Source of the DNA: Patescibacteria group bacterium
Lineage (GTDB): Bacteria > Patescibacteriota > UBA1384 > XYA2-FULL-43-10
Assembly: GCA_041674405.1 (NCBI GenBank)
Contig: JBAYVT010000001.1
Span: 30,001-62,000, forward strand
Length of the DNA: 32,000 bases
Direction: 5' to 3'
Shown here one piece after another: positions 1,592 to 32,000 of this stretch. Each line of letters begins with the position of its first letter. Positions within the stretch are counted from its first letter, which is position 1. Made by a program: the position numbers and the translations under genes. The notes under the pieces are model-generated. The model had not been told where the DNA came from. It did not search any database and saw nothing but the letters and a program-made list of their open reading frames with translations.

Positions 1592-1598
1592 AGGCACA

Positions 1599-6780: not shown

Positions 6781-6784
6781 AAAT

Positions 6785-7810: not shown

Positions 7811-7840
7811 AAAAAATGCCCGCCAGGGCCTTTTGTTTTT
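7811..7840. terminator. bidirectional intrinsic terminator between the tRNA-Val unit and the convergent high-GC ORF
   Basis: AAAAAAT-GCCC-gcca-GGGC-C-TTTTGTTTTT. A-run and T-run flank a 4-bp GC stem. Confidence 0.5.
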
Positions 7841-7908
7841 ATAGACCATGAACGACCCCTTGTGGAGGTCGTCAGGCACTTCTTCTTGGAAGCCAAGAGA
7901 TTCGGCTT

Positions 7909-8274: not shown

Positions 8275-8380
8275 CTAATTTATATAACATTTCTGTGTAT
8301 TCGTCAATGATACCTGGTCAAATAGATTTGAATTTAGATTAATGTTATGATTAATTTGGATCATAATTCAGGAGGGAAAT

Positions 8381-15444: not shown

Positions 15445-15451
15445 ATAGCCT

Positions 15452-16518: not shown

Positions 16519-16551
16519 AATATCAGATTTTAGCCGAAAAATTAAGAGTGA

Positions 16552-16869
16552 TTATAGCTTTTTAAAAAGGTTATCAACCTTTTCTGCGTAGCTTTCATTA
16601 AGATCAAGAATAAATCTAAAATTTGGAATAATACGAAGCTTTATTTTCCCTGCCAGGTCTTTGCGGATTTCTTTTGCGTGAAAGTTTAGCTGATCGACAA
16701 TTTTCTGATCATCATTTAATACACTGATATATATTTTTGAAGATGAAAGATCGGATGACGTATCAACCCTGACAATTGAGGCAATATTTCCCCCAATGTA
16801 GTCCAAAATACTAAACGAGAGCTTAGAAAGAATGAGTGCGTTGACTTGTTTAATGCGTGAGGAATCCAT
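16552..16869 (-). CDS. rbfA: ribosome-binding factor A
   Basis: Size and pattern fit: RIKQVNALILSKLS.., SSSKIYISV, LRIIPNFRFILD (RbfA: lRytPeLeFvyD). Confidence 0.75.
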   Translation of the reverse strand: MDSSRIKQVNALILSKLSFSILDYIGGNIASIVRVDTSSDLSSSKIYISVLNDDQKIVDQLNFHAKEIRKDLAGKIKLRIIPNFRFILDLNESYAEKVDNLFKKL

Positions 16870-16885
16870 GGTTAGTCCTTAGTTT

Positions 16886-16929
16886 GTAGTCCTTAGTCTG
16901 TAGAAAATTCACTACGAGCTACGGACTAC
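16886..16929. promoter_or_regulatory. imperfect 18-bp hairpin in the rpsI-rbfA spacer, overlapping a duplicated SD-containing decamer
   Basis: GTAGTCCTTAGTCTGTAG-aaaattca-CTACGAGCTACGGACTAC (14 Watson-Crick, 2 G.U, 2 mismatches). On the minus strand CTAAGGACTA occurs twice just before the rbfA ATG. Confidence 0.4.
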
Positions 16930-16945
16930 TTACTACTGACTGACT

Positions 16946-17332
16946 TTATCGCTTAGACCATTGTGGAGCACGGCGGGCACCTTTAAGCCCTGGCTTCTTT
17001 CGTTCTTTTTCTCGAGGATCACGCGAGAGCAGCCCGGCTTTTTTCAAAGATGTACGAAATTCTGAATTATATTCAACCAAAGCGCGGGAAATGCCGTGGC
17101 GGATAGCCTCTTTTTGGCTTTGAAATCCACCGCCGACTACCTTAGCAGATACAGCGAAAGAACCCTTCTTGCCAACTATTTCAAAAGGTAAAATAATTTC
17201 TTCTGAAAGATCAGTGGTTTTGTCGTTTATTGAACTCTCTTTTTTGCCCTCAAAAATACGAACGCGTGCAACTGCGCTCTTGCGCCTTCCGGTACCGAAA
17301 TAATATTTTTCTTTTTTTGCGGTTTCTGCCAT
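16946..17332 (-). CDS. rpsI: 30S ribosomal protein S9
   Basis: GTGRRKSAVARV and C-terminal GARRAPQWSKR. Confidence 0.95.
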   Translation of the reverse strand: MAETAKKEKYYFGTGRRKSAVARVRIFEGKKESSINDKTTDLSEEIILPFEIVGKKGSFAVSAKVVGGGFQSQKEAIRHGISRALVEYNSEFRTSLKKAGLLSRDPREKERKKPGLKGARRAPQWSKR

Positions 17333-17340
17333 GTTCTACC

Positions 17341-17751
17341 TTACTTGTTTACAAATTTAACATTAACGTGCGGATGCTGGTCTCCGGCATAAACTTTAAG
17401 CCGATTAAGTTTTAAAGCTTGAAGCTTGTTTTTGGGTAACATTCCGGAAACAGCGTGCTTAATGATAAATTCAGGATTTTCCTCTTTAATATCTTTGTAT
17501 TCTTTGGTTTTAAGATTGCCAATATAACTCGTGTGCTTATAATACCTTTTGTCGAGCTCTTTGTTTCCGCTAAGCTTAACATCTTTTGCATTGATAACAA
17601 CAACATAACCACCAAGGTCAAGATTTGGTAAGTAATCCGGGCGGTTTTTGCCGTTTAGTATATCAGCAATTCGGGTGCATGAACGACCGAGAATTTGATC
17701 CTTCAGGTCGAAGATATACCAGTTTCGATTTTGTTCAGTTTTATTAGCCAT
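17341..17751 (-). CDS. rplM: 50S ribosomal protein L13
   Basis: NRNWYIFDLKDQILGR..IADILNGK, YYKHTSYIGNLK. Confidence 0.95.
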   Translation of the reverse strand: MANKTEQNRNWYIFDLKDQILGRSCTRIADILNGKNRPDYLPNLDLGGYVVVINAKDVKLSGNKELDKRYYKHTSYIGNLKTKEYKDIKEENPEFIIKHAVSGMLPKNKLQALKLNRLKVYAGDQHPHVNVKFVNK

Positions 17752-17752
17752 A

Positions 17753-18190
17753 TTATTTCTTTGTTATCTCTTTTTCACTAGTTTTCTTTGCAAGTTTCTT
17801 TTGGGAATCCTTTTTATCATCCGTGGCTTTCTCGGGTTCCTTGACGAAAACTTTTTTATCCACTAGCATAAGGCGCACGACCTGAGCATTGTCTCCAAGT
17901 CTTTTATGGAGCCGGTAGCTTTTGATAAATCCGGATTTTCTTTCAGAATATCGTTGTTTGAGGTCGGTAAGGACTTTGTCGGCGGCATTTTTATCAAAAA
18001 GTATGGAATAAATCTGTCTTTTTGCATGAAGGTCATCAAGTTTAGCTTTTACAATAATCTTTTCCACAAAAGCCTTAACTTCTTTGGCTCTCGGGGCTGT
18101 GGTGTCGATTTGTTCGTACAACAAAAGAGACGCCGCAGCGTTGCGAATTACATGCTCTCTATGCGCTTTTTTCATCCCAAGTTGTCTCAT
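17753..18190 (-). CDS. rplQ: 50S ribosomal protein L17 with a Lys-rich C-terminal tail
   Basis: LGMKKAHREHVIRNAAASLLLYEQIDTTAPRAKEV. Follows rpoA. Confidence 0.9.
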   Translation of the reverse strand: MRQLGMKKAHREHVIRNAAASLLLYEQIDTTAPRAKEVKAFVEKIIVKAKLDDLHAKRQIYSILFDKNAADKVLTDLKQRYSERKSGFIKSYRLHKRLGDNAQVVRLMLVDKKVFVKEPEKATDDKKDSQKKLAKKTSEKEITKK

Positions 18191-18191
18191 A

Positions 18192-19142
18192 TTAACTCAG
18201 CTTCTCTTTTACCTCGTCAATTCCCTTTTGCCCAAGTCCCTTGATTTCGGATAATTTAAGATCGGACAATCTTTTAAGGCCAGCTATAGTTTTAATTCCG
18301 GCATTAACCAAAGCATTCGTGGTTCGTTGCGAAAAATTAGCGTCTTCAATTTTTGTTTTTGGGTCAAGTCCGATTTCGTCAGCTTCTTCTTCGCCACCCA
18401 ACAATTCTTCTTCTTCTATTTCAACTTCGTTTTTTGGCATCTCGGTAAGCTCAAACGGAACCTCTTCATTGAAGGCAAAAGCCTTGTAATGATCAATCAA
18501 AATGTTTGACGCGGATATTAATGCATCATATGGAGCAATACTTCCGTCACTATCGATCTCAATGACCAATTTGTCATAGTTTGTCATCTGGCCAACACGG
18601 GTATTTTCAATATCCATTTTAACTCGGGTAATTGGGGAAAATGCAGCATCGATGTCAATTCGACCAATTTCTTTTCCTTTGTCGGTAAAGTCTTCGGTAG
18701 ATCTAAATCCTCTGTCTTTTTCAATTGTAACTTCAAGTTCGAATTGAGCACCTTTATCCAGTGTGGCAATGTGAACTTCTGGATTAATTATTTCAATGCT
18801 AGAATTCTTAGAAAAATCAGCACCAGTGACTTCGCCGGGACCTTTTTTGGAAATCATCAATGCGGTCGGTTCATCACTATCTGATTTAACATTAATCTCC
18901 TTAAGGTTGAGCATAATTTCAAGGAGATCCTCCTTAACATGCGAGATCGCTGTAAACTCATGAGGAGCACCCTCAAGCTTAAAAGATGTGATCGCTGATC
19001 CAGGAATAGATGACAGTAAAACACGTCTTAACGCATTGCCAAGAGTAGCACCATAGCCAGGATAAAGCGGATCAATAACAAACCTGGATTTGTTATCCTC
19101 AAGCTTTTCCTCTCTAATTTTTGGCAGAGATATTTTCTCCAT
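18192..19142 (-). CDS. rpoA: DNA-directed RNA polymerase alpha subunit
   Basis: FVIDPLYPGYGATLGNALRRVLLSSIPG N-terminal domain. C-terminal HhH domain (FSQRTTNALVNAGIKTIAGL). Confidence 0.95.
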   Translation of the reverse strand: MEKISLPKIREEKLEDNKSRFVIDPLYPGYGATLGNALRRVLLSSIPGSAITSFKLEGAPHEFTAISHVKEDLLEIMLNLKEINVKSDSDEPTALMISKKGPGEVTGADFSKNSSIEIINPEVHIATLDKGAQFELEVTIEKDRGFRSTEDFTDKGKEIGRIDIDAAFSPITRVKMDIENTRVGQMTNYDKLVIEIDSDGSIAPYDALISASNILIDHYKAFAFNEEVPFELTEMPKNEVEIEEEELLGGEEEADEIGLDPKTKIEDANFSQRTTNALVNAGIKTIAGLKRLSDLKLSEIKGLGQKGIDEVKEKLS

Positions 19143-19155
19143 ATTTATCTCCTTT

Positions 19156-19749
19156 TTATCTAGAGTAAAATTCTACGATTAAATTCTCATTAATATTTAG
19201 TTCGATTTCCACTCTCTCAGGTATGTGTTTTACTAATATTTCTTTTTTTGCATCATCTAAGGAAATCCAGTTTGGTGCAGCATTTTTTGTATTTTTAACA
19301 ATCTCCAACGTTTTGGGATATTTCACAACATCGTTGGGTTTGACAATAATTGAAGGTGAAGTTGCTCGTTTGTTGTTTACATAAACACGACCGTGAGATG
19401 CTAGCTGGCGAGCCGTGGCATGCGAATTTACAATTCCACTTCGGAACAAAACATTATCAAGCCGTGATTCCAACAACGAAACCAGATTTTCAGCGGTATT
19501 TCCTGTTTTCCTGTCAGCGTTTTCGTAATATATTTTGAGTTGGGATTCTGATATACCATAAACTTTTCTGATTTTTTGTTTTTCGCGAAGCTGTTTGCCG
19601 TATTCAGATAGTTTGATTCGTGATGTCGGGCCATGCTGCCCTGGCACATAAGGTCTTTTTACAACTGCACACTTTGGAGAAAGACAACGCTCTCCTTTGA
19701 GCATCAATTTCTCTCCTTCGCGTCTACATTTTCTGCATCCATGATTCAT
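19156..19749 (-). CDS. rpsD: 30S ribosomal protein S4 (Cys-cluster form)
   Basis: CRKCRREGEKLMLKGERCLSPKCAVVKRPYVPGQHG. Start trimmed to the ATG at 19749, just after the rpsK stop. Confidence 0.9.
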   Translation of the reverse strand: MNHGCRKCRREGEKLMLKGERCLSPKCAVVKRPYVPGQHGPTSRIKLSEYGKQLREKQKIRKVYGISESQLKIYYENADRKTGNTAENLVSLLESRLDNVLFRSGIVNSHATARQLASHGRVYVNNKRATSPSIIVKPNDVVKYPKTLEIVKNTKNAAPNWISLDDAKKEILVKHIPERVEIELNINENLIVEFYSR

Positions 19750-19751
19750 AA

Positions 19752-20156
19752 CTATACTCTTCTTTCTTTCTTCGCACGGCATCCGTTATGTGCAATTGGG
19801 GTGATATCTTTGATTGTCTCCACGGTAAGGTTGGAATTAATCAAAGCTCGAACGGCTGATTCTCTTCCTGCACCTACACCGGAAACAAACACTTTTACTT
19901 TGGAAAGGCCGTATGCTTTTGCTTTTTCAACAGCATCAGTTGCAGCAAGCTGCGCAGCATAGGGAGTAGATTTCTTCGTCCCCTTAAAACCAATCGAACC
20001 GGCAGATGCCCAAGTTACTACATTTCCATCTTCATCTGTCACGGAAATAATTGTATTGTTAAAGGATGACTGAATATAAATACTTCCAGAATAAACTGAT
20101 TTTTTGACCTTTTTTCTTACCACTTTTGTGGCTTTTTTATCAACAGCTTTTGCCAT
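19752..20156 (-). CDS. rpsK: 30S ribosomal protein S11
   Basis: GSIYIQSSFNNTIISVTDEDGN..SAGSIGFKGTKKSTPYAAQ. Confidence 0.95.
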   Translation of the reverse strand: MAKAVDKKATKVVRKKVKKSVYSGSIYIQSSFNNTIISVTDEDGNVVTWASAGSIGFKGTKKSTPYAAQLAATDAVEKAKAYGLSKVKVFVSGVGAGRESAVRALINSNLTVETIKDITPIAHNGCRAKKERRV

Positions 20157-20166
20157 TTATTTCCTC

Positions 20167-20550
20167 TTATGTCTTTTGAGCGGCAGGTTTACGCCCGGAG
20201 CCAACAGTAATTTTCTTACCACGTTTGGTTCGAGCATTTGTTTTGGTGCGTTGTCCTCTGGCTGGCAAACCTTTAATATGCCGAACCCCCCGATAAGCAC
20301 CAACCTCTTTGAGCCGTTTAATATTTTGGCTAATCATCATCCTAAGATCACCCTCAACCTTGAATGCAGCAATAGCTTTTCTGATTTTCTCAACATCAGT
20401 CTCACTCAAATCTTTAACGCGAATATCGCCGCTTACGCCGGATTTTTCAATAATTTTTCGGCTGGTTGTACTGCCTATGCCAAAAATATATGTGAGGGCA
20501 ATATTTAATTTTTTTTCGTTAGGAATATTTACGCCAGCTATTCTTGCCAT
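20167..20550 (-). CDS. rpsM: 30S ribosomal protein S13
   Basis: [49 protein letters not shown]. Confidence 0.95.
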
Positions 20551-20551
20551 G

Positions 20552-20698
20552 TTATCCTTGCCTCTGCTTGTGTTTAGGGTTTTCGCAAATCACAAAAATT
20601 CGTTCCTTCGCGCTTGTTCGTTTGGACTTGCCTTTCTTGCTGCGAGAAACGATTTTGCATTTGTCGCACATTTTTTTTACAGATGGTCTAACTTTCAT
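20552..20698 (-). CDS. rpmJ: 50S ribosomal protein L36 with an internal basic insertion; absent from the ORF track (48 aa)
   Basis: My translation: [48 protein letters not shown]. It sits in the canonical infA-rpmJ-rpsM position, with its stop 1 nt before the rpsM ATG. Confidence 0.85.
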
Positions 20699-20712
20699 TG
20701 TTTATATTCGGC

Positions 20713-20934
20713 TTACGCAATATCGCGAAATACAATTCTGCCTTTGGTTAAATCATAAGGCGACATTTCTATAGAAACCTTATCTCCAGGAAGAACGCTA
20801 ATTCGATGCATTCGCATTTTTCCACCAAGCGATGCAGTAATTTCGTATCCTGAATCAAGTTTAACTAAAAAACTAGCATTGGGGAGGGTTTGGATTACCG
20901 CTCCCTTCGCTGTTATGACATTTTCTTTTTTCAT
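20713..20934 (-). CDS. infA: translation initiation factor IF-1
   Basis: [60 protein letters not shown]. The ATG at 20934 is preferred over the TTG at 20943. Confidence 0.9.
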
Positions 20935-20946
20935 ACTACACAAGGG

Positions 20947-20975
20947 ATAATATCATATTAAACGAGTAGAGTCAA
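20947..20975 (-). promoter_or_regulatory. sigma70-like internal promoter candidate upstream of infA
   Basis: Minus strand TTGACT-N17-TATTAT. The -10 hexamer ends 12 nt before the infA ATG, implying a very short leader. Confidence 0.4.
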
Positions 20976-21069
20976 CACTGCTTATACGAATCCATACACT
21001 GATCAATACAATCGCTAATATTTGGCAAAATTACGTGTAATTTGGGTTGATTTAGGTATCCGATTTAAA

Positions 21070-21831
21070 CTATACAGTTATAATTTCGCTTCTTTTACTG
21101 CCAATCAAAATTGTGTGTTCGAAATGCGCCGCTTTACTCCCGTCTAGTGTTGATACGCTCCATCCATCAGAGGATGTCTTAACATCGTGCGAACCCACAA
21201 CAACCATAGGCTCAATTGCTACGGCGATTCCGGAAACAAGTTTTTCTCCTTCGTTTTTCCTTCCAAAATTGGGTATTTGTGGATCTTCATGCACATTACG
21301 CCCTACCCCGTGCCCAACAAGCGCACGAACAACACTAAAACCCTCTTTTTTAATATACATTTCAACAGCGTTTCCAATATCACCAGTGGTGTGGCCGGCT
21401 ATTGCATTGGCAATTGCAATTTTAAGGGCCTGCTCTGTGACCTTAATAAGTTTCTCGTCGATTTTATTTTTTGGAGAGCCGGCAATTACACTCTTTGCCA
21501 TATCCGTATTCATTCCGTGATAGTTAACGCCTAGGTCGACTGAAACAATGTCGCCTTCGCGAATAATTTTATTTGGATAAGGAATTCCGTGGACGATTTC
21601 ATCATTTAGAGAGACGCACAAAGCAGCAGGAAATGGATTATCATCTCCGGGAGGATAGTTTTTAAAGGATGGAGTGCCACCTTGCTGCCTGATTGACGAT
21701 TCGGCTATTTGATCCAATGAAGCCGCGGAAATCCCGGGTTTAATCGCGAGAATCACCTCAGAAAGGGCATTTTTGAGTATTTTGCCCGATTTGCGGAGTA
21801 ATTTAATTTCGTTGCTACTTAATTTCTGCAT
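21070..21831 (-). CDS. map: methionine aminopeptidase, type I
   Basis: EIKLLRKSGKIL, HGIP, VSVDLG, GHGVG, AIEPM, FEHTI metal-ligand pattern. Confidence 0.9.
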   Translation of the reverse strand: MQKLSSNEIKLLRKSGKILKNALSEVILAIKPGISAASLDQIAESSIRQQGGTPSFKNYPPGDDNPFPAALCVSLNDEIVHGIPYPNKIIREGDIVSVDLGVNYHGMNTDMAKSVIAGSPKNKIDEKLIKVTEQALKIAIANAIAGHTTGDIGNAVEMYIKKEGFSVVRALVGHGVGRNVHEDPQIPNFGRKNEGEKLVSGIAVAIEPMVVVGSHDVKTSSDGWSVSTLDGSKAAHFEHTILIGSKRSEIITV

Positions 21832-22471
21832 TAATTACTTTTTCTTCAATTTCTTTTTCTACCTCGGGAATGGTTTGTTCGCCATTTATTTCAATCAAGA
21901 TTGCCTGATTCTTAAACTCCTCAACAACATCGTCAATCCTTGGCTTGTAAATAGAAATTCTGTTCTCAACTACTTCGGCCTTATCATCAGCCCTTGAAAT
22001 CAAAGAACCACCGCATGCATCACAGATTGTAGCTGTTCCGCCGATAAAGTTTTTGCCACATTTTGAACATACTTTTCGGTTTAAAATTCTATTGAGCGCA
22101 GATTCTGGTTCAATTTTAATCCAGACGCATACCGGTTTATCAATACCAAGATCCTTGCACATCTCAAAAAATAAGTCGGATTGGTTTTTTGTAAAAGGAA
22201 AATTATCTAAAACAATATCGCCCTCTATGCCATCAATATTTTTTTTAATGATATCAACGGCAATTTCATCCGGCTGTGGAATTCCCTTATCATAACGCTC
22301 TTTCATTTCTTTGTAGAATGGATCAGAAAAATCAGCATTTTCCAGCTCTTTTCGAATTAGATTACCCATACCAAAAACGGTAACTTTCATTTTTTTCGCC
22401 ATTATTTCAGCTTGCGTTCCTTTACCTGATCCCGGTAACCCGAGAAAGCTGTAGACTGTTCTTTCTGACAT
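21815..22471 (-). CDS. adk: adenylate kinase (Zn-lid form)
   Basis: P-loop GLPGSGKGTQAE. Lid CSKCGKNF..CDACGGSL. Confidence 0.9.
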   Translation of the reverse strand: MSERTVYSFLGLPGSGKGTQAEIMAKKMKVTVFGMGNLIRKELENADFSDPFYKEMKERYDKGIPQPDEIAVDIIKKNIDGIEGDIVLDNFPFTKNQSDLFFEMCKDLGIDKPVCVWIKIEPESALNRILNRKVCSKCGKNFIGGTATICDACGGSLISRADDKAEVVENRISIYKPRIDDVVEEFKNQAILIEINGEQTIPEVEKEIEEKVINAEIK

Positions 22472-22524
22472 TTGTTTTCCTTAAATTAACAATAATTATT
22501 CCTAAATTATCTTTTATTTTTAAA

Positions 22525-23799
22525 TTAGTAATGATCGTATGTATGCATTAAAAGCTGGGCGGTAAGCTGTCTCATAGTGTCAATAATGACGGCAACGAGA
22601 ATTAGTATGCCTGTTCCACCGATTGCAAGGGTAGAAATATTTGTTACCGATTGAACAATATATGGCAACACACCGATAAGGCCAAGGAATACTGCCCCCA
22701 GAAATGTAATTCTGCTAATAATTTTTCCTAAATATATTTTAGTTTCCGTTCCGGGCCTTAGTCCAGGTAAATAACCGCCCTGTTTTTGTAAATTTTCAGA
22801 AATCTGGTCCGGTTTAAACACTACCGATGTATAGAAGAAAGTGAACAAGAAAATCAGTATGAAATATATGATAGCGTAATACAAATTGTTGTTCACAAGT
22901 GTAACTATCCAAGTTGCAGCATGTTTTATCCAATCAGTTTTTGCGTTTTCAAGATATTTGCCGAGGACGCCTGGAATAACCATAATACTCATGGCAAAGA
23001 TTATCGGAATTACCCCCGCTGTATTTACGCGAATCGGAAGATGAGAATCAACCGCGCCATATTGCGTAGCTCCTCTTGCCCGACGAGCATAAGAAACGGA
23101 AATATTTCTTTGGCCCTCGGTTATATAGATAATTGCTGCGACAATAAGGACAAGCAGAATGCCAATGCCAACAACGCTCAAGATTTTGGTAACATCGCCG
23201 GCAGTTAAAAGAGCGGCTGTATTTCGAAATTGGGTCGGAAATCCGGATAAAATACCCAATGAAATTATCAGTGAAATTCCATTGCCAATCCCTTTTTCGG
23301 AGATTAATTCACCAAGCCACATAAGAAGCATAGTACCAGCCGAAGCAGAAATCAGCATCATAATAAGATCAAACATAGTCCAAGATGGGACAATGCCTTG
23401 GCTGCGTAAGACTGCAAGCATAGCATAGGCCTGCAATATTGCGATGGGAACGGTGGCATATCTTGTCCATTGATTTATTTTTTGTTGGCCGGATTGGCCT
23501 TCTTTCTGAAGCTCCTCAATGCTTGGCACAACCATTGCTAAGAGCTGAAATATAATAGATGAGGTTATATACGGGCCAACCCCCATCAAAATGACAGAAA
23601 AATTGCTCATCGTGCCACCAGAGAACATATCAAGTAGTCCAAATATCTGGTTATTTTGGAAAAACAATTTTAGTTGGTTAAAATCTACGCCAGGCAACGG
23701 AACATGAGCAATTAGCCGCGTTAACAATAGCAGTGAAACGGCAATAATTACCTTGTTTCGTAAATCCTTATACTGCCAGATTTTAGTCAAAAAGTTCAT
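22525..23799 (-). CDS. secY: preprotein translocase subunit SecY
   Basis: 10-TM profile. ALGIGPYITSSII-like segment (GVGPYITSSIIFQLL). ISEKGIGNGISLII. Confidence 0.95.
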   Translation of the reverse strand: MNFLTKIWQYKDLRNKVIIAVSLLLLTRLIAHVPLPGVDFNQLKLFFQNNQIFGLLDMFSGGTMSNFSVILMGVGPYITSSIIFQLLAMVVPSIEELQKEGQSGQQKINQWTRYATVPIAILQAYAMLAVLRSQGIVPSWTMFDLIMMLISASAGTMLLMWLGELISEKGIGNGISLIISLGILSGFPTQFRNTAALLTAGDVTKILSVVGIGILLVLIVAAIIYITEGQRNISVSYARRARGATQYGAVDSHLPIRVNTAGVIPIIFAMSIMVIPGVLGKYLENAKTDWIKHAATWIVTLVNNNLYYAIIYFILIFLFTFFYTSVVFKPDQISENLQKQGGYLPGLRPGTETKIYLGKIISRITFLGAVFLGLIGVLPYIVQSVTNISTLAIGGTGILILVAVIIDTMRQLTAQLLMHTYDHY

Positions 23800-23829
23800 A
23801 CAAAAAAATTCCGCTTATTTAGCTCTTCG

Positions 23830-23858
23830 ATTTTAACTTAATATTATGCGTAAGTCAA
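23830..23858 (-). promoter_or_regulatory. sigma70-like promoter candidate for secY-adk-map
   Basis: Minus strand TTGACT-N17-TAAAAT in the 111-nt spacer between the giant gene and secY. Confidence 0.45.
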
Positions 23859-23910
23859 CGATAAATTAGTTTGAAAGATTGAGACATGAGATGAAAACAA
23901 CGATCGTAAT

Positions 23911-26900
23911 CTAATATCTTGAAAATATCTTTATCCAAGAAAACGCCCGCTGAAAAGCTTCCAGTATGAGATTTAAGGCGGATTGCTGGGCTTTCTGGGT
24001 GATTACAGCATTGTCTTCCGATGTGCCAGGATTGCCGGCTTTGTCTTTGGATACGGCTCTTAAATGGTAGGTCTTGGTCGGATCAAGATTGGAGATAATG
24101 ACAACATGGGCATTGGAATAGGATCCGTCTTCCTGGGTTTTGGAAGAATAATTGGAAGATGATACTCCTTCGCCGTATTCAACCTGAGAGGTAGAGGTTT
24201 CATCTGTGCGCCAGGAAACAACCACTTGGGCTTTACCACCATCGGATGATGTGCCGGTTTTGGATTCAATGGTAAGTTCTGTTACTTTTGGCGGACGGGA
24301 ATCAAGAGCGGTTTTAAAAGTGTTGGTATCACTTGTGGCCTTGTTACCATATTGGTCTGTGCCTGAAGCAGTAAGAGTGTAGGAGGCGTTGTCAGAAAGA
24401 TTTGCAATGCTGATTTCATGATCTTTCTTCATGTCGGAAGTAGCTACTTCTCTCTGTTCTCCACCAGATGGACCATAAAGGACAGATGAGGTGGTCTCGA
24501 CATTGGTTGCCCAAGTTACCTTCATGCCAGCATAGGCCTGATCGTCAACGGGCTCAAAGCGAAGATTGGAGATGATGGGGATGGGGGGAGTGGAAAAATC
24601 CTTAAGGCCATAAAATCTTGTTCCGTCTTGAGCTGTCGCATCAACTCTTAATTGATAGCTGGTACCACCAGAAAGACCAGCTAGTTCTTTAGAAAATTCA
24701 GTGCTATAGGTATCACTGACAACAATTGATTGGCCAAGATCGCCAACACCAAATTCCAAATTAGTTTTTGCTGGATAAGTGGTAGTCCATGAAACGCTTG
24801 CAAGTGTTGGAGTCAAGACTTTGACTTCTAAATTTTTAATGCCTGGTGCCACCGCCGTGGTGGTCTCATGCCAGGCAGATTCTCCAGTGTTGGCAGAAGT
24901 ATCCATCCATGTGACTTTGTAACGATAAGTGCGTTCCGGTTCGAGGCCAACCACCCTTACATTGTGGTTGATGTCAAAACCACCGAAGGCTTGTTCGGTG
25001 AGATATTCATTGCCCTCATAGACGATAACTGATCCTTTGGTGTTTTTGTTAGTCGTCCAGCTCACCGTGATCGATGACGGACCGGCAGTAACGTTCGGCC
25101 CATCGATGATGTTTACTACTCCAGTAGAGCAGTAAACTCCGGTCTGATAAGCAGAGACATTACCTGCATTGTCTTTCGATCTAATGTATATTACATTATC
25201 TCCTTCTTGATAAGGATGAAGGGAAAGCGTGGTATCGGCAGTAGATTGGACTTGGCCTTGAGAACCATTTTTGTAGTCATAACCAGCAATACCGGCACCG
25301 CCGGAATCTCCGGGAGCATCCCAGGTGGCGGTGAAGTCTTGGGTGGTGGAACAGCCAACAGGAGATAGATTGATATACTCCGGAGCAGGTGGCGGACCGC
25401 CATCATAGGAATACGTGAATAACTTGGTGGCGGGAGTTTGAATATTCAGGTCGTTATCTTCGGATTTAATAAGCAGATAATATGTGACTCCGGATGTCAA
25501 AGCGCCTGCTGGCACTTGGATATGTTGTTCTGTATCTGCTGCACCGGAATGGGCTTGATAGTGATATGCGCCACTTGATTCCAAAACACCAGATGTAGAG
25601 ACGGGATCAGCTGAATCAGAGGTACCAAAGTAGATAAGGTAGCCGCGGATACCGGAACCCCCTTCTTCATCAGCCGCTCCGGCGAAGGTGATGTAGGGAC
25701 TAGCACTATTTCCCCAGCCGGAGTCGGTAAACTCGGTGGTCTTTCCGGAGTCACTGTAGAAATGGGCAGAGGAGGGATTGGTGGGGGCAGTAGTATCTGA
25801 TCCGGTATGAGTAATGGTGATATTATCCATCATCCCATCCCAGCGGTCGGTTATAGAGTTCACTCGGCTACCGATGTAAAAGTAATAACCACACGAAAGG
25901 TTCCCCCAAGGAGTATCATCAAGAAGAGACGCCACCTCTGTACTATTAACATTAAGTGATATTATTCCACTAGTCCCATCGTAAAGGACCTGAACATTAT
26001 TCCAGCTCCCGTCCGCCAAACTAAGAGCTTGGGATTCCAAAACCAGCTTACGGCTTGCAGTTGTAAGATACATTCTAAGCCTGTAATCAAAGATGTCGTA
26101 GACCAATCGCAGTTCGTCTGTGCTCCCCTGGGCGTCAAAAAGTATCTTTTCTTTTGTAAAAGTCGACAAAAAGCCCGATCCGTCAATTTTTGTTTGGACA
26201 ACTCGATTGTTTTGATAGTCAACAATATAGATATTTTCAGAAGTCACATCATAAGCAATTCCTCGGGGATAATTGAAATTACCGACTCCACTTCCGTTTG
26301 TACCGTAAGTTGTCCACCCGGTGCCATCCATCTTGGTTTTTACAATGCGATGATTGTTATAATCAGTCACAAAAATATTGCCACTTTCTGAATCGACCGT
26401 AATACCGCGAGGTCCATTGAAATTACCTGTCCCATTGCCAGCAGTACCGTAAGCTGTCCATCCTGTGCCGTCCATTTTAGTTTTGACAATGCGGTTGTTG
26501 CTATAGTCAGCGACATAAACATAATCATTGACTTGATCATAATCAATGTAGCAAGGATTGCTGAAGTTTCCTTCACCGCTGCCATTTGTGCCGTAAGCCG
26601 TCCACCCGGTGCCATCCATCTTGGTTTTTACAATACGGTTATTGCCATAATCAACGACGTAAACGTAATCACCAACTGAATCATAAGCAATACCATATGG
26701 ATGATTAAAATTGCCAATGCCACTGCCCACCGTTCCGTAAGCCGTCCACCCGGTGCCATCCATCTTGGTTTTCACGATACGGTTGTTGCTATAGTCAGCG
26801 ACATAAACATAATCACTTGCCGGATCATAGGCGATACCATATGGACCATTAAAATTACCTACTCCACTTCCAGTTGTGCCATATGCAGTCCACCCCGTAC

Positions 26901-28215
26901 CATCCATTTTGGTTTTCACAATGCGGTTGTTGCTATAGTCAGTGACATAGATGTAACCACTGGATCGGTCATGAGCAATGCCTAGTGGTTGATTAAATCC
27001 AGCCGTACCCCTGCCATTTGTACCATATGCAGTCCACCCCGTACCATCCATTTTGGTTTTCACAATATTACGATTTCCAGAATCAACCACATAAATATTA
27101 CCGCTCCCGGGGTCAAAAACAATACCAGCTGGTTCGGAAAATTTCCCTACTCCACTTCCGTTCGTGCCATATGCAGTCCATTCTGTTCCATCCATCTTGG
27201 TTTTGACAATACGCTTATTGCCAGTATCAGCAACGTAGGCATAATCACCAGTGGCGTCATAAGAAATACCCGATGGGTTTGAGAAATTGCCTACTCCACT
27301 TCCAGTTGTGCCATATGCAGTCCATTCTGTTCCATCCATCTTGGTTTTGACAATACGCTTATTGCCATAATCAGCGACATAGGCGTAATCACCAACCGGA
27401 TCATAGGTAATACCGTATGGGCTACTGAAATTTCCTACTCCACTTCCGTTCGTGCCATAAGTTGTCCATCCCGTACCATCCATCTTGGTTTTGACAATGC
27501 GGTGATTGCCAGTATCAGCAACATAGAGATAGCTATTTGTCGAATCATAAACAATGCTATATGAAAGTCCAAAATTTCCTACTCCACTTCCGTTCGTGCC
27601 GTAAGTTGTCCACCCGGTGCCATCCATCTTGGTTTTGACGATGCGTTTATTGCTGGTATCCATCACATATATATACCCACTAGATGAGTCGTATGCAATT
27701 CCACGTGGATTATTAAAATTTCCTATTCCACTTCCGTTCGTGCCATAAGTTGTCCATCCCGTACCATCCATCTTGGTTTTGACAATGCGGTTGTTACCAT
27801 AGTCTGCAACATAGACGTAACCATTGGCAGCATCATAGGCAATATTATATGGCAAATAAAGCTGTCCACTGGTGTCAATTGAATTTTTTCCATAATCATC
27901 TTTTTGAAAGTCCAAGGAAATAGAGCCTTTGGACGCAGATAGATTATCATTGGTAGCATATTTTAGAGTCTCGGCGCCATCGTAAGTATATTTAAGAGAA
28001 CTTCCCGATCCACCCTCAGCATTCGTAGTTGAGAGGGTGGGAAAGGTACTATCCGTAGAAGCAGTCCCTAACCCAACAGAGTAATCTGCATTATAGCTTC
28101 CATTATCATATGAGGTTCTGAAAGAATCTCCTGCTTTGGTTCCTTTTGTAAATATTGGGAAAATATTGTAGGCTACCAAAAATATGATCGTGAGAGAAAC
28201 GACCAAAATTCCCAA
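23911..28215 (-). CDS. giant secreted or surface-anchored NHL-repeat, LamG-like and Fn3 multi-domain protein (1434 aa)
   Basis: N-terminal hydrophobic anchor. 12 x 48-aa NHL-type blades (YVADxxNxRIVKTKMDGTGWTxYGTxGSGxGNFxxPxGIxYD). ConA/LamG-like segment (DGSWNNVQVLYDG..FYIGS..WDGMMDNITI). Two DTTAP/GSGIxGY Ig-like modules. Four Fn3-like modules (VSWTT..YG..Y.Y). Start uncertain: TTG at 28215, or in-frame ATT/ATA up to 28245. Confidence 0.85.
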   Translation of the reverse strand: MGILVVSLTIIFLVAYNIFPIFTKGTKAGDSFRTSYDNGSYNADYSVGLGTASTDSTFPTLSTTNAEGGSGSSLKYTYDGAETLKYATNDNLSASKGSISLDFQKDDYGKNSIDTSGQLYLPYNIAYDAANGYVYVADYGNNRIVKTKMDGTGWTTYGTNGSGIGNFNNPRGIAYDSSSGYIYVMDTSNKRIVKTKMDGTGWTTYGTNGSGVGNFGLSYSIVYDSTNSYLYVADTGNHRIVKTKMDGTGWTTYGTNGSGVGNFSSPYGITYDPVGDYAYVADYGNKRIVKTKMDGTEWTAYGTTGSGVGNFSNPSGISYDATGDYAYVADTGNKRIVKTKMDGTEWTAYGTNGSGVGKFSEPAGIVFDPGSGNIYVVDSGNRNIVKTKMDGTGWTAYGTNGRGTAGFNQPLGIAHDRSSGYIYVTDYSNNRIVKTKMDGTGWTAYGTTGSGVGNFNGPYGIAYDPASDYVYVADYSNNRIVKTKMDGTGWTAYGTVGSGIGNFNHPYGIAYDSVGDYVYVVDYGNNRIVKTKMDGTGWTAYGTNGSGEGNFSNPCYIDYDQVNDYVYVADYSNNRIVKTKMDGTGWTAYGTAGNGTGNFNGPRGITVDSESGNIFVTDYNNHRIVKTKMDGTGWTTYGTNGSGVGNFNYPRGIAYDVTSENIYIVDYQNNRVVQTKIDGSGFLSTFTKEKILFDAQGSTDELRLVYDIFDYRLRMYLTTASRKLVLESQALSLADGSWNNVQVLYDGTSGIISLNVNSTEVASLLDDTPWGNLSCGYYFYIGSRVNSITDRWDGMMDNITITHTGSDTTAPTNPSSAHFYSDSGKTTEFTDSGWGNSASPYITFAGAADEEGGSGIRGYLIYFGTSDSADPVSTSGVLESSGAYHYQAHSGAADTEQHIQVPAGALTSGVTYYLLIKSEDNDLNIQTPATKLFTYSYDGGPPPAPEYINLSPVGCSTTQDFTATWDAPGDSGGAGIAGYDYKNGSQGQVQSTADTTLSLHPYQEGDNVIYIRSKDNAGNVSAYQTGVYCSTGVVNIIDGPNVTAGPSSITVSWTTNKNTKGSVIVYEGNEYLTEQAFGGFDINHNVRVVGLEPERTYRYKVTWMDTSANTGESAWHETTTAVAPGIKNLEVKVLTPTLASVSWTTTYPAKTNLEFGVGDLGQSIVVSDTYSTEFSKELAGLSGGTSYQLRVDATAQDGTRFYGLKDFSTPPIPIISNLRFEPVDDQAYAGMKVTWATNVETTSSVLYGPSGGEQREVATSDMKKDHEISIANLSDNASYTLTASGTDQYGNKATSDTNTFKTALDSRPPKVTELTIESKTGTSSDGGKAQVVVSWRTDETSTSQVEYGEGVSSSNYSSKTQEDGSYSNAHVVIISNLDPTKTYHLRAVSKDKAGNPGTSEDNAVITQKAQQSALNLILEAFQRAFSWIKIFSRY
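26158..27867 (-). repeat. 144-bp tandem coding repeat, about 12 copies (the NHL blades)
   Basis: Period verified. 27441-27503 and 27729-27791 are 63 nt identical at an offset of 288 nt (2 x 144). The motif ccatccatcttggtttt recurs throughout. Confidence 0.85.
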
Positions 28216-28277
28216 AATGCTCTTTTTGTGAATAATTTTTTTTATTTATTCCCCTCACATTTTTTAGTGACAAATAC

Positions 28278-28307
28278 ATTTTAACAAAATGTGGCATATC
28301 TCATCAA
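28278..28307 (-). promoter_or_regulatory. sigma70-like promoter candidate for the giant gene
   Basis: Minus strand TTGATG-N18-TAAAAT, downstream of the rplO terminator and about 20 nt upstream of the GAGGGG Shine-Dalgarno. Confidence 0.35.
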
Positions 28308-28391
28308 TATTTGAAAGGAAAATGTAACTCATTGCCGTGTACACATGTAAAAATATGCTTACAGAGCGTCTAATTCTTTATTTTTGAATTT

Positions 28392-28418
28392 TGTAAAACA
28401 AAAACCGGCTTTTGCCGG
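28392..28418 (-). terminator. intrinsic terminator immediately after rplO
   Basis: Minus strand CCGGC-AAAA-GCCGG-TTTTTGTTTT, starting 27 nt after the rplO stop. Confidence 0.55.
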
Positions 28419-28444
28419 AATTTGTTTAGACAAATCGATTGAAA

Positions 28445-28927
28445 TTATTTAGAGCTTTTCTTCGCAGCAGATTTTTTGTCGGATTTAGCGGCTTCCTTTT
28501 TTTCAACCTTTGTTTCAGGCTTTACAAATAAAGAGGCTATGCTTTTGGAAGCTTTGATATCTAGAAGGGAAACCTTGACTGTAAGTTTGCCGTTGTTAAG
28601 TATCTTTGCTTTGCTGCCAGTTTCAATCAGCTTTTTCTCAACAAGTGATTTTAAGCTGACAACCTCGCCATCTTTGTAATTCTTGGAAATGTCGTCGAGG
28701 GAAATAACTCTGGCTTTATCATTAACTGATTTAAAGCCTCGAAGTTTCGGCAGGCGCATTGAAAGCGGTGTTTGGCCACCTTCAAAACGTTTGGGAATAT
28801 TAAAACCAGAACGTGATTTTTGGCCCTTGGTTCCGCGCCCTGCTGTTTTACCTTGTCCCGCAGAAATTCCGCGCCCAATTCGCTTAATGCTTTTTTTGCT
28901 ATATGATTTTAGTGATATTTTTTCCAT
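28445..28927 (-). CDS. rplO: 50S ribosomal protein L15 with a Lys-rich tail
   Basis: RIGRGISAGQGKTAGRGTKGQKSRSG..FEGGQTPL. Confidence 0.9.
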   Translation of the reverse strand: MEKISLKSYSKKSIKRIGRGISAGQGKTAGRGTKGQKSRSGFNIPKRFEGGQTPLSMRLPKLRGFKSVNDKARVISLDDISKNYKDGEVVSLKSLVEKKLIETGSKAKILNNGKLTVKVSLLDIKASKSIASLFVKPETKVEKKEAAKSDKKSAAKKSSK

Positions 28928-28935
28928 GAGTTTGC

Positions 28936-29604
28936 CTATTTTTTAGCTTTAATTTTCGCTTTCGTGTCCTTCTTTGCCGGTTTGCTATTTGGTTTTATTG
29001 GCTCTGCTTTTTTTTCTCCAGTCTTTTCTTCAGCTAATTCAACTTTTACCTCTTTAACCTCAACGCGTTCGCTCTTTTTATCAAAATCTGAGATCTTGTC
29101 AACAACACGTGCACTAAAAGATTGTAAAGCTTTTATCGTGGCAGTAACGTTATTAACTTTGTTTTGGCTCCCCATTGATTTTGCCAAGATATCTGAAATG
29201 CCGGCAAGCTCAACCACGGCACGTACCGAACCACCAGCAACGATGGAAGTACCACTAGAAGCCGGCTTTAGAAGAACGATGGCTGCACCATATTTAGATC
29301 TGACTTCATGCGGAATTGTGCCTTTTATGATAGGAACATTGACTAGGCGTTTCTTTGCTTTGGTAGAAGCCTTTCGAACAGCGTCTGCAACTTCATTTGC
29401 CTTGGCAACACCCATTCCGACGCGGCCTTTTCTGTCACCCAAAACGATCAAAGCTCTAAAACGGATTCTTCGTCCGCCTTTTACAACTCTGGAGATTCTA
29501 GAAACCTCAATCACGCGCTCCTCAAATTCCTTTTCTTCTCGAGGTTTTCTGTCCCTGTGAGCAGATCTTGGCCTCATAATATTTTTTTCAAGTTCTTTGG
29601 GCAT
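28936..29604 (-). CDS. rpsE: 30S ribosomal protein S5 with a C-terminal Lys/Glu-rich extension of about 55 aa
   Basis: VSRISRVVKGGRRIRFRALIVLGDRKGRVGMGVAKANEV..AGGSVRAVVELAGI. Confidence 0.9.
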   Translation of the reverse strand: MPKELEKNIMRPRSAHRDRKPREEKEFEERVIEVSRISRVVKGGRRIRFRALIVLGDRKGRVGMGVAKANEVADAVRKASTKAKKRLVNVPIIKGTIPHEVRSKYGAAIVLLKPASSGTSIVAGGSVRAVVELAGISDILAKSMGSQNKVNNVTATIKALQSFSARVVDKISDFDKKSERVEVKEVKVELAEEKTGEKKAEPIKPNSKPAKKDTKAKIKAKK

Positions 29605-29612
29605 GTTTCCTC

Positions 29613-29933
29613 TTAGATGTTTAAGCCTGATTTTTTTGCTGCTTCTACTAATTCTTTTACCGCACCATGATAGCGATATTCCGATCGGTCCAAAACAACA
29701 CTTTTGACTTTCTTTTCTGCAGCTTTTTTGGCGATCTCTTCGCCGACTTTTCTAGCCATATCGGTAAGCTTGCCATCTCCTGCCTTAAGCGTTGATACAG
29801 CGACCAAGACATTTCCTGTTTCCGAATCGACTATTTGGGCGTACATATTCTTATTTGAGCGTACTACAATAAGCCTTGGCAAATTTTGATTGGCACTGTT
29901 AATTTTCTTGATTTTATTTCGAACGTTTGCCAT
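29613..29933 (-). CDS. rplR: 50S ribosomal protein L18
   Basis: PRLIVVRSNKNMYAQIVD.., DRSEYRYHGAVKELVEAAKKSGLNI. Confidence 0.9.
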   Translation of the reverse strand: MANVRNKIKKINSANQNLPRLIVVRSNKNMYAQIVDSETGNVLVAVSTLKAGDGKLTDMARKVGEEIAKKAAEKKVKSVVLDRSEYRYHGAVKELVEAAKKSGLNI

Positions 29934-30485
29934 TTATGCTGCCTTTCCTGCAGACTGAGCAGTTTTACCGGCTTTTCTGCGAATGACTTCTTCACTATAT
30001 TTAATGCCTTTGCCCTTATACACCTCTGGTGGCCTGACTTTTCGGACTTTGGCTGCAAATTCACCAACTTTTTGCCTGTCAATTCCTTCGATAACAATGG
30101 AATTTTTAACCACATTGACCGCAATTTCCTCTGGGATGTCGAGCTTTATCTCGTGTGAATAACCCATGTTGAGAATCAATTCTGTTCCTTCAACCCGAAC
30201 ACGATAACCGGTACCTTTGAATTCGAGTGTCTTTTTGGCACCCTTAGACAAATCAGCAATAATTCCAGAAATAAGGCGGGTTATAAGCCCATGCTGTGAT
30301 TTTTCAAATTTTGAATTTCCATTTCGGCTTGTCGTGATAATACCATTTTCTATCTTTACTTTAATTTCATCCGGCAAATCTAAAATTCTTTCACCTTTTG
30401 TTGATTTTGCAATAAACTTGTTATTTTCAACAGATATTGTGATATTGTCATCAGTTTTAATTGGTCGTTTTCCTAGTCTTGACAT
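29934..30485 (-). CDS. rplF: 50S ribosomal protein L6
   Basis: MSRLGKRPI.., GTGYRV, GYSHEI, KVRKVRPPEVYKGKGIKY. The ATG at 30485 avoids overlap with rpsH. Confidence 0.9.
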   Translation of the reverse strand: MSRLGKRPIKTDDNITISVENNKFIAKSTKGERILDLPDEIKVKIENGIITTSRNGNSKFEKSQHGLITRLISGIIADLSKGAKKTLEFKGTGYRVRVEGTELILNMGYSHEIKLDIPEEIAVNVVKNSIVIEGIDRQKVGEFAAKVRKVRPPEVYKGKGIKYSEEVIRRKAGKTAQSAGKAA

Positions 30486-30490
30486 ATTTC

Positions 30491-30868
30491 CTACCAAATT
30501 TCACAAATTAATTCACCACCGATATTCGTTTTCTTGGCTTCGCGTCCAGAAATCACACCGACTGGCGTTGACATTACGATGAGTCCCAGGCCACGCAAAG
30601 GTTTAGGAATATCGTTGGCTTTGACATAAATGCGCTGTCCCGGCTTACTCAATCTCTTTAAATGCATCATTTTACCAGCGCCAAACGTAACAAGAAGCAT
30701 CTTTTGGTTCTTAACAATTTTTTCAGAAACCGCAGAAATAAACCCTTCCTTTAGGATCACGTCCAAAACCGCTTTCTTGTGTTTCGAGTAAGGCAAAACT
30801 GCTTCGGTTTTTCCGGCGCTTAATGCGTTTTTCAATCTGATTAATAAATCTGCAATTGGATCTGACAT
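30491..30868 (-). CDS. rpsH: 30S ribosomal protein S8
   Basis: MSDPIADLLIRLKNA.., GLGLIVMSTPVGVISGREAKKTNIGGELICEIW. Confidence 0.95.
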   Translation of the reverse strand: MSDPIADLLIRLKNALSAGKTEAVLPYSKHKKAVLDVILKEGFISAVSEKIVKNQKMLLVTFGAGKMMHLKRLSKPGQRIYVKANDIPKPLRGLGLIVMSTPVGVISGREAKKTNIGGELICEIW

Positions 30869-30922
30869 ATTGTCTCTTAAAGTTTAATTGATATATTTTC
30901 TGTGTTTAAAATTCTGTACAAT

Positions 30923-31108
30923 TTACCAGCTGGACTTGGTTACGCCAGGTATTTCTCCACGGCTAGCTCGCTCTCTAAAGCAGATGCGGCACATATCATA
31001 CTTTCTTATGTAAGCACGCGGCCGTCCGCAAAGCTTACATCTTCGTATTTTACGTGTGGAAAATTTTGGCTTTCTATTCGCCTTTACAATCATCGATTCT
31101 TTAGCCAT
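30923..31108 (-). CDS. rpsN: 30S ribosomal protein S14, type Z (Zn-binding, 61 aa)
   Basis: [30 protein letters not shown]. Confidence 0.95.
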
Positions 31109-31662
31109 TATTTGCTCCCTTCTTGTTTTTCAAACGGGAATCCTAGCGCAGAAAGCAATGCCTCACATTCGGCATTATTCTTGGCAGTTGTATTAACATT
31201 TATCTGAAAACCGAAATTCTCGGTTACATTTTCAAATTTAATTTCGGGCATGATTGTATGCTCAGAAATTCCAAGCGAATAATTGCCCCTGCCATCGAAT
31301 CCATTTCGGGACAATCCCTTGAAATCTCTAACGCGTGGAAGAGCGACATTGGCTAGGCGGAAAATAAAATCATACATTTTCTCGCCGCGTAGTGTTACTG
31401 TAAGGCCGACTGGCTGGCCAATTCGCAGCTTAAATGCAGAAACTGCTTTTCTGGATTTGTTGATTTTAGGTTTCTGGCCAGTAATTATTGCCAGGTCATT
31501 CTGAATTTTTTCAATTGCTTTTTCTTCTTCTTTGAATTTGCCAACACCCGAGGATACAACTACTTTTGTAACTTTCGGTGTTCTTTCGATATTGGTAAAA
31601 GAGAGAGTTTTTTTGAGCTCTGGCCTGATCGTGTCATAAAATTTTTCTTTCAAAGCGGTCAT
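31108..31662 (-). CDS. rplE: 50S ribosomal protein L5
   Basis: [18 protein letters not shown].., [22 protein letters not shown]. Confidence 0.95.
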
Positions 31663-31982
31663 TACTTGGCTCCTCCCTCAATTGACTGATTGCATTTTTT
31701 GCAAATTCGAATTTTAGCATCATTCTTTATGCTGTATCCGACTCTTCCTGATTTGCCGCAATTCGGGCAAATGACAGCAACATTGGATGCGTCAAGCTTT
31801 TTGTTGATGTCGATTATTCCACCCTGCGGGTTCTTGCGGCTCGGCTTAACATGTTTTTTCATGATATGAACGCCTTTTACAGTAAGTTTATTTTCGGTGG
31901 CAAAAACACTATCAACTATGCCGCTTTTTCCGCGGTCTTTGCCAACTTTTACCAATACATTGTCATTTTTCTTAATTTTCAT
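31662..31982 (-). CDS. rplX: 50S ribosomal protein L24 (C-terminal CxxC..CxxC form)
   Basis: KIKKNDNVLVKVGKDRGKSG KOW motif. HVKPSRKNPQGGI. CPNCGKSGRVGY..ICKKC. Confidence 0.9.
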   Translation of the reverse strand: MKIKKNDNVLVKVGKDRGKSGIVDSVFATENKLTVKGVHIMKKHVKPSRKNPQGGIIDINKKLDASNVAVICPNCGKSGRVGYSIKNDAKIRICKKCNQSIEGGAK

Positions 31983-32000
31983 CGTATTTACTTTATGAAC

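Follow-up and report, generated by a model that had tools for sequence, protein, structure and literature searches.

Why does a 4.3-kb gene for a giant predicted surface protein stand between rplO and secY, whose adjacency (that of L15 and SecY) is widely conserved among bacteria though not inviolate? The question is raised by a contig of a Berkelbacteria-like member of the Patescibacteria (JBAYVT010000001.1, assembly GCA_041674405.1), of which we analyzed positions 30,001 to 62,000; this 32,000-nucleotide (nt) stretch is called the window here and is numbered from its first base. Its minus strand carries the spc operon in the canonical gene order, to which both Pfam and the gene tables for identical contigs attest (rplX, rplE, rpsN, rpsH, rplF, rplR, rpsE, rplO, and then secY, adk, and map), but rplO and secY are not directly adjacent, being separated by 4645 nt (23800–28444). 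According to the list of open reading frames (ORFs), this interval holds one ORF of 1434 amino acids (aa) and no other credible one, with a spacer of 229 nt on the rplO side (28216–28444) and one of 111 nt on the secY side (23800–23910). The explanation that we favor, with moderate confidence, is that this lineage already had a loose boundary in the operon, into which a native paralogue moved, and that the placement of the gene reflects tolerance of insertions rather than a tie to the translocon.

The interruption could be trivial if the contig were an assembly artefact, chimeric either within the repeats of the large gene or at one of its spacers. Other assemblies of the same population were found by exact-protein look-ups of SecY and L15; an exact look-up of the large protein itself (P0001) returned no record. 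One contig (L089, JGI 3300037067) spans window positions 29700–23918 at 99.95% identity, taking in rplO and falling just short of the large gene's stop codon. Two others (L088, Logan SRR6484325; L090, ENA ERZ27247363) extend from rplO into the region encoding the N-terminus of the large protein at 100% identity, and all three carry the identical rplO protein in the same context. On the other side, L001 (Logan SRR6484325) covers 26332–22401 at 100% identity, beginning in the large gene, of which it has the C-terminal ~60%, and continuing across secY as far as adk; L002 covers 23874–22401. Three other assemblies thereby confirm the rplO-side junction, and one or two confirm that on the secY side, at 99.95–100% identity. 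What might still suggest an artefact is that the NHL-encoding region is a 144-nt tandem array at 72% identity and that short-read contigs are interrupted within it (with an end at about 27762 in L088 and L090 and a start at 26332 in L001), as expected of a tandem repeat; in addition, L089 has three clustered differences at 26698–26717, including a 1-nt deletion. Against this, both junctions were assembled independently, and the ORF is intact and collinear with 1400-aa homologues over its whole length. The check for chimeric assembly that the earlier note on this sequence had asked for is thus answered by assemblies from three other samples: the junctions are not chimeric, the intact 4.3-kb gene described there is real, and we regard an artefact as very improbable. 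The differences in L089 fall within 20 nt of one NHL repeat, where the deletion splits the gene into ORFs of 528 and 943 aa; they could represent a strain variant, repeat cross-talk during assembly, or a frameshifted allele.

The same junction in related genomes is often broken. A SecY-based scan with one genome per species yielded 80 loci, all from Patescibacteria or mislabelled bins, of which 79 were counted as relatives. The median rplO–secY spacer was 82 nt in the 74 loci with both genes, compared with 27 nt for rpsE–rplO and 92 nt for secY–adk. Interrupted or severed junctions were found in 11 of the 79 relatives and in 5 of the 10 closest (SecY 61–70% identical), so that interruption is common within the lineage sampled. 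Six of the 74 spacers exceed 400 nt (L005, 3589; L008, 4929; L058, 1511; L025, 642; L023, 501; and L068, 435 nt), and rplO is absent from the 5–8 kb upstream of secY in L007, L010, L011, L047, and L081, three loci having no rplO anywhere in 8 kb upstream. The inserted genes differ from case to case. Genes for an acyltransferase, a 5′-nucleotidase, and two proteins of unknown function lie on the same strand in L005; those on the opposite strand in L008 encode TspO, DUF456, and predicted membrane or secreted proteins of unknown function. L010 and L011 have a DUF2207 membrane protein gene on the opposite strand, L007 has genes for a PD-(D/E)XK nuclease and a pilin-like protein, and L025 has a DJ-1/PfpI family gene (6289–6837) between rpsE and rplO as well as a 223-aa gene of unknown function between rplO and secY. 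No homologue of the large gene was found among the inserts of the relatives. In the L007–L010 clade (SecY 61–64% identical), secY and adk are also separated by 2.4–3.5 kb, and secY is isolated from its usual neighbors on both sides. In L010 (7977–9251), secY consists of two separate ORFs of 281 and 109 aa, probably because of a frameshift or an assembly error.

These comparisons leave little of the earlier note's suggestion that the interruption was without known precedent, since insertions at this point prove to be routine in related lineages; a search of the literature for rplO/secY interruptions in Patescibacteria found nothing. They are consistent with a model in which the rplO–secY spacer of this lineage is a loose boundary rather than a tightly coupled junction, given its median length of about 82 nt, the promoter-like site of its own that secY often has, and the repeated unrelated inserts or severing. 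Motifs resembling TTGAYN-N17-TAGAAT, judged by eye, precede secY in the uninterrupted spacers of L006 and of L009, which is a little more distant. Among relatives whose junction is intact, the four closest (L003, L004, L006, and L012) have spacers of 30–76 nt with no hairpins. One copy of the gene family described below would then have been relocated or duplicated into this spacer.

In the window, the boundary is marked more strongly on the rplO side than on the secY side. A hairpin core, CCGGC-AAAA-GCCGG, lies 27 nt past the rplO stop, with TTTTTGTTTT directly after it (together 28418–28395); it is the sole terminator-like match in 15000–32000 with all five stem pairs G–C, and when the A and T tracts on either side are included, its folding energy is −19.6 kcal/mol (z = −5.5 versus shuffles). 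Promoter-like sites precede both the large gene and secY, and the latter belongs to the only two matches of 10/12 on the minus strand in 17 kb, the other being just upstream of infA. That second site (TTGACT-N17-TATTAT with a TG extension, 20947–20975, in the map–infA spacer) suggests another internal promoter in the array. Between the stop codon of the large gene and secY (23790–23990), no terminator-like structure was detected (z = +1.3), so transcripts of the large gene probably read through. From these predicted signals, we infer that ribosomal-protein transcripts probably end at the strong hairpin after rplO, that the large gene would be transcribed from its own promoter, and that its transcripts probably continue into secY-adk-map, which an internal promoter would additionally serve. 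The hairpin, the promoter before the large gene, and secY's own promoter had all been proposed in the earlier note; the sequences are present and plausible as such signals. Its further proposal of a separate transcription unit would hold for the 5′ boundary, where the hairpin and the promoter-like site lie, and not for the 3′ boundary, where no terminator-like structure precedes secY.

The large gene belongs to a protein family. About 30 homologues (P0002–P0030) share its NHL plus Fn3-type architecture at 26–47% identity, 15 of which cover 96% or more of the query in the alignment. The close homologues are all of the same lineage, two being named as Candidatus Berkelbacteria. Common to the family are a signal-like N-terminus, the motif SFxxxY(D/N)xGSxNA (SFxANY(D/N)xGSxNA), a C-terminal Fn3 module of ~550 residues, and a terminal motif, QSxLNIIxxxLxxxFGWL, that is kept in every full-length homologue inspected. 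The window protein has all of these traits, at 34–57% identity to members in alignments A1 and A2, and matches the family profile with an E value of 4e-258, which is partly by construction, the protein being one of the nine sequences in the profile. Exact look-ups and a metagenome scan with alignment A1 gave 25 distinct informative loci; a metagenome scan with the window's own C-terminal peptides found no relatives, and the scan with A1 found them. In 19 of the 25, an ATP-binding cassette (ABC) ATPase (ABC_tran) and a MacB_PCD/FtsX permease lie ~10–250 nt downstream of the last family gene, with LolD, LolCE, and MacB as the best NCBIfam matches for the pair. Tandem paralogues are common (L084, L086, L096), often two or three before the ABC pair. 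A family gene beside rplO or secY was seen in none of the 25 loci. The usual genomic home of the family is thus directly upstream of a MacB/LolCDE-type ATPase and permease pair. No ABC/FtsX pair occurs in the 32-kb window, where secY lies downstream of the large gene instead; this linkage has been lost in the window copy, and we consider it a more interesting lead than the position of the gene. The family loci include L083, L084, and L093–L118, and an example of the ABC pair is at L084 9592–11536.

These contexts bear directly on the idea, put forward in the earlier note, that the gene was placed upstream of the translocon gene needed for its export. Selected co-expression, in which synthesis of a secreted protein of 1434 aa is coordinated with the supply of SecY by read-through, would fit the lack of a terminator-like structure before secY, which makes read-through plausible, and would also fit the relatives whose inserts encode TspO, DUF456, DUF2207, or signal-bearing proteins of unknown function. 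However, a family gene beside secY is missing from all 25 informative loci, many of the relatives' inserts lie on the opposite strand and would not be co-transcribed with secY, the L005 insert includes cytoplasmic-type enzymes, and secY keeps a promoter-like site of its own. We therefore consider selected co-expression unlikely, and with 19 of the 25 loci preceding an ABC pair, the claimed tie between placement and translocon is not supported. Tolerance of insertions at this site is the better explanation of the placement, and one further alternative has to be weighed against it.

That alternative is the recent acquisition of a cassette, foreign or mobile, and its integration into the spc operon. 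The GC content of 24000–27000 is 0.43–0.48, against 0.37–0.41 in the flanks; the gene has its own promoter-like site and a terminator-like hairpin upstream; and the closest relatives are without the gene at the rplO–secY site. All of this might be expected of a cassette. Nonetheless, GC content at third codon positions (GC3) is 0.40 in the large gene and 0.31–0.42 in its neighbors, and the choices among Lys, Asn, Asp, and Tyr codons are within 0.02 of those of neighboring genes. The GC excess sits at codon position 2 (0.47 versus 0.31–0.40 in neighbors), and the raised GC content is explained by the abundance of Gly, Thr, Ser, and Ala in the protein. The two spacers have no direct or inverted repeat of at least 10 nt in common (a single shared 9-mer is at chance level), nor were target-site duplications or inverted repeats found between them, and neither the ORF list of the window nor Pfam revealed an integrase or transposase ORF. 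Thus, flanking repeats, a recombinase, and atypical codon usage, by which a mobile element might be recognized, are all missing, and all close homologues of the protein come from the same lineage. We judge a foreign cassette to be quite unlikely. The description of the insert as an autonomous cassette is likewise not supported, with no terminator-like structure on the 3′ side, no repeats shared by the spacers, no integrase or transposase, and codon usage and GC3 like those of the neighbors. The native GC3 and codon usage, the lack of shared repeats, and the lack of any other credible ORF make the gene look native, relocated or duplicated within its own genome.

Some points weigh against a native paralogue in an already loose boundary. 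Terminator-like hairpins occur in only 2 of the 60 uninterrupted rplO–secY spacers of the relatives, which means that two operons were not fully separated at this boundary until the insertion; the hairpin seems to have come in, or to have evolved, together with the inserted gene. The relatives are metagenome-assembled genomes, and some of their broken junctions could be misassemblies, although L010 and L011 share the same arrangement independently. Several of the relatives' inserts encode membrane or secreted proteins, which leaves room for weak selection connected with the expression of secY. The elements of the transcription model (promoters, terminator, and read-through) are all predicted. 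Finally, 32 kb of the genome is in view, which is compatible both with a relocated gene and with an extra paralogue whose ABC-linked counterpart lies elsewhere. A more specific version, in which the gene was inserted between a pre-existing terminator and a pre-existing promoter, was considered and dropped with terminators in 2 of 60 spacers, though some relatives do have promoter-like motifs before secY.

The features of the locus are collected below.

Features of the rplO–secY region, in window coordinates and in order along the minus strand
Feature	Position	Strand	Basis or remark
rplR	29613–29933	minus	Pfam
rpsE	28936–29604	minus	Pfam
rplO (ribosomal protein L15)	28445–28927	minus	Pfam Ribosomal_L27A; last ribosomal-protein gene of the array in the window
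Terminator-like hairpin (predicted)	28390–28434	minus	Core CCGGC-AAAA-GCCGG 28418–28405, T-run 28404–28395, complementary flanking A and T tracts
Promoter-like TTGATG-N18-TAAAAT with TG extension (predicted)	28278–28307	minus	Consensus scan 9/12; upstream of large gene
GAGGGG (28256–28251) and in-frame ATA (28245–28243) right after a TAA stop	28243–28256	minus	Possible non-canonical start
Large ORF (4.3-kb gene), 1434 aa from TTG start	23911–28215	minus	ORF list
Hydrophobic N-terminal segment, residues 1–24	28144–28215	minus	Kyte-Doolittle windows >1.6 here only
Twelve NHL repeats, residues 107–682	26170–27897	minus	Regular-expression register; exact 48-residue period
LamG-like beta-sandwich segment, residues 689–803	25807–26151	minus	Pfam Laminin_G_1, below threshold
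Fn3/Ig-like domain array, residues ~830–1405	24001–25728	minus	Pfam fn3, Pur_ac_phosph_N
C-terminal tail QQSALNLILEAFQRAFSWIKIFSRY, last ~25 residues	23914–23994	minus	Family motif QSxLNIIxxxLxxxFGWL
Promoter-like TTGACT-N17-TAAAAT (predicted)	23830–23858	minus	Consensus scan 10/12; inside the 111-nt spacer before secY
secY	22525–23799	minus	Pfam SecY, E 1e-99
adk	21815–22471	minus	Pfam ADK
map	21070–21831	minus	Pfam Peptidase_M24

The sequence features listed in the earlier note were all recovered at, or a few bases from, the positions it had given, and its spacer lengths for the other junctions of the array are approximately right, as judged from ORF coordinates. The exception concerns the start of the large gene. 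The GAGGGG that had been taken for its Shine-Dalgarno sequence lies 35 nt upstream of the TTG start, which is too distant, and no correctly spaced GAGG-type motif precedes the TTG at 28215. The GAGG motif starts at −11 from the ATA at 28245, and where other genes in the window have a motif of this kind upstream, it mostly starts at −8 to −14. Initiation at this ATA would add (M)KKIIHKKSI, a basic N-terminal stretch like that in most homologues. Two gene callers picked different TTG starts, at 28215 and 28206.

The claim of a very large exported protein with 12 NHL blades and LamG-like and Fn3-like modules is borne out by Pfam (NHL, fn3, Pur_ac_phosph_N, and a weak Laminin_G_1 match), by AlphaFold2 (AF2) models, and by Foldseek. 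AF2 places a helix at residues 2–22, within the hydrophobic N-terminal segment. This segment may be a signal anchor, and a cleavable signal peptide is equally possible because family members have a small-residue, AxA-like motif just past it; the conserved SFxANY(D/N)xGSxNA motif of the family also follows the segment. The NHL repeats match Pfam PF01436 with an E value of 2.1e-61 (201 bits against a cut-off of 20), and Tandem Repeats Finder reports a 144-nt period with 11.1 copies. An AF2 model of residues 1–830, built on an 18-sequence family alignment, has a mean predicted local distance difference test score (pLDDT) of 83.5, with values >90 through most of 120–680. The best matches of the propeller model in the PDB are the tandem six-bladed propellers of LRP6, LRP4, and LRP2, together with single NHL propellers, among them Thin (6xg7; target-normalized template-modelling score 0.86, root-mean-square deviation 2.3 Å, 33% identity) and TRIM71 (0.88). 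Given these matches, residues 107–682 are predicted to form two six-bladed beta-propellers in tandem.

The segment that follows the propellers is all-beta in the AF2 model and reaches 18.6 bits with Laminin_G_1, below the Pfam cut-off of 24 (E 0.0023); homologues carry similarly weak or faint Laminin_G_1/2 matches. It may pair with the N-terminal beta segment (residues 30–106), so that the propellers would be nested in a split sandwich. The array beyond it is supported by fn3 at 32.3 bits (cut-off 25) and Pur_ac_phosph_N at 56 bits (cut-off 30). In the AF2 model of residues 875–1434, the array is all-beta and has a short helix at its end (pLDDT 79), and Foldseek matches this part to the Fn3 arrays of fibronectin, gp130, and receptor tyrosine phosphatases (E 1e-12 to 1e-16). 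At the very end of the protein, the tail is predicted to form a short amphipathic helix (residues 540–550 of the C-terminal model). No significant NCBIfam match to a sorting signal was found in the last 63 residues (LPXTG, PEP-CTERM, MYXO-CTERM, GlyGly-CTERM, and others); the best score, for MXAN_2561_fam (E 0.031), falls over Fn3-like residues and not over the tail. This architecture suggests an adhesin, a receptor, or another binding protein that would be exported by the Sec system and presented at the cell surface on a long stalk of Fn3 domains.

When a profile was built for the C-terminal module, 2351 representative proteins matched it at E ≤ 1e-30. Among the top 150 of these matches, many have the module at their extreme C-terminus, as do nearly all of those that cover the full module in a single stretch. 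Proteins bearing the terminal module range from ~400 to 6,900 residues. From the sequences, the module looks like a shared stalk that carries variable heads. We found no literature on this protein family under Berkelbacteria or NHL-repeat surface proteins.

Several known systems resemble parts of the locus. Interrupted S10-spc-alpha clusters are one; in Mycobacterium tuberculosis H37Rv, eight genes (Rv0724–Rv0731c) lie between rplO (Rv0723) and secY (Rv0732), and that locus and the window have in common that non-ribosomal genes separate rplO and secY and that secY, adk, and map stay together downstream. The window differs in having a single giant surface-protein gene, on the same strand, with a strong hairpin before it and no terminator after it, in a reduced genome of the candidate phyla radiation (CPR). 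The related Patescibacteria (L005, L007, L008, L010, L011, L025, L058, and others) share the breakpoint and the lineage, with inserts of ~0.4 to ~5 kb where both genes are in view and often with envelope proteins, but each carries cargo of its own, none of it homologous to the large gene, and many of their inserts lie on the opposite strand. Like the NHL propellers of PF01436 (Drosophila Thin, TRIM71/Lin41), the large protein has NHL repeats and a predicted six-bladed fold, and like LRP6 and LRP4 it has a double-propeller arrangement, in its case that of a predicted model. It differs from these in its twelve perfectly periodic 48-residue repeats, in a family-specific inter-blade motif, RIVKTKMDGTGWT, and in the LamG-like segment and Fn3 stalk that follow. 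ABC systems of the MacB/LolCDE/FtsEX type (type VII) act on extracytoplasmic partners, LolCDE on lipoproteins and FtsEX with EnvC/PcsB. The LolD-like ATPase and MacB_PCD/FtsX permease that directly follow the family genes in 19 of the 25 informative loci resemble such systems; in contrast, the window copy has no such pair nearby, and its C-terminal helix matches no known sorting signal in NCBIfam.

Elsewhere in the window, rpmD (L30) is absent between rpsE and rplO, where the gap is 8 nt (28927–28936); absence of L30 is a typical feature of the CPR. A fermentative cluster on the plus strand (26–5843) encodes a cofactor-independent phosphoglycerate mutase, a PTAC-type phosphotransacylase, acetate kinase, and three subunits of pyruvate:ferredoxin oxidoreductase (POR). 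A POR/ferredoxin gene is also present in L083, at a distance of ~5.6 kb from the family homologue P0021. Beside tRNA-Val (7635–7709), the stretch 7710–8380 has a GC content of 0.47, against ~0.38 in its flanks, and an unusually stable predicted fold (z = −4.45). It contains a minus-strand ORF (7909–8274; 121 aa from a GTG start, ~113 aa from the first ATG). The stretch has no Rfam match and its ORF no Pfam match; it may be a small foreign island or an unrecognized RNA.

Taken together, our results describe an event of an ordinary kind, a lineage-specific gene in a permissive break of the spc cluster, and add a member to a large, unnamed family of giant NHL/Fn3 proteins; the position of this copy is a curiosity rather than a new mechanism. 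It nonetheless has practical implications. Adjacency of rplO and secY cannot be assumed in Berkelbacteria-like Patescibacteria, a point of relevance to pipelines in which the ribosomal-protein block is used for concatenation or scaffolding, and secY expression in these bacteria is probably uncoupled from the autoregulation of the spc operon.

The more useful biological lead is the protein family with its ABC linkage, rather than the location of the gene. One possibility, which we put forward tentatively and consider doubtful as yet, is that the Fn3 stalk and terminal helix mark a very large, undescribed family of CPR surface proteins that are clients or partners of dedicated MacB/LolCDE-type ABC machines, and that the window copy, outside an ABC operon, has been wired into the secY unit. 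If so, these machines would extract, tether, or mechanically actuate the family proteins, and the window copy would be a natural uncoupling experiment. The thousands of giant envelope proteins that have this C-terminal module in common, with its genetic linkage to a MacB-type ABC transporter, are candidates for a cell-surface contact machinery in ultra-small, probably host-dependent bacteria.

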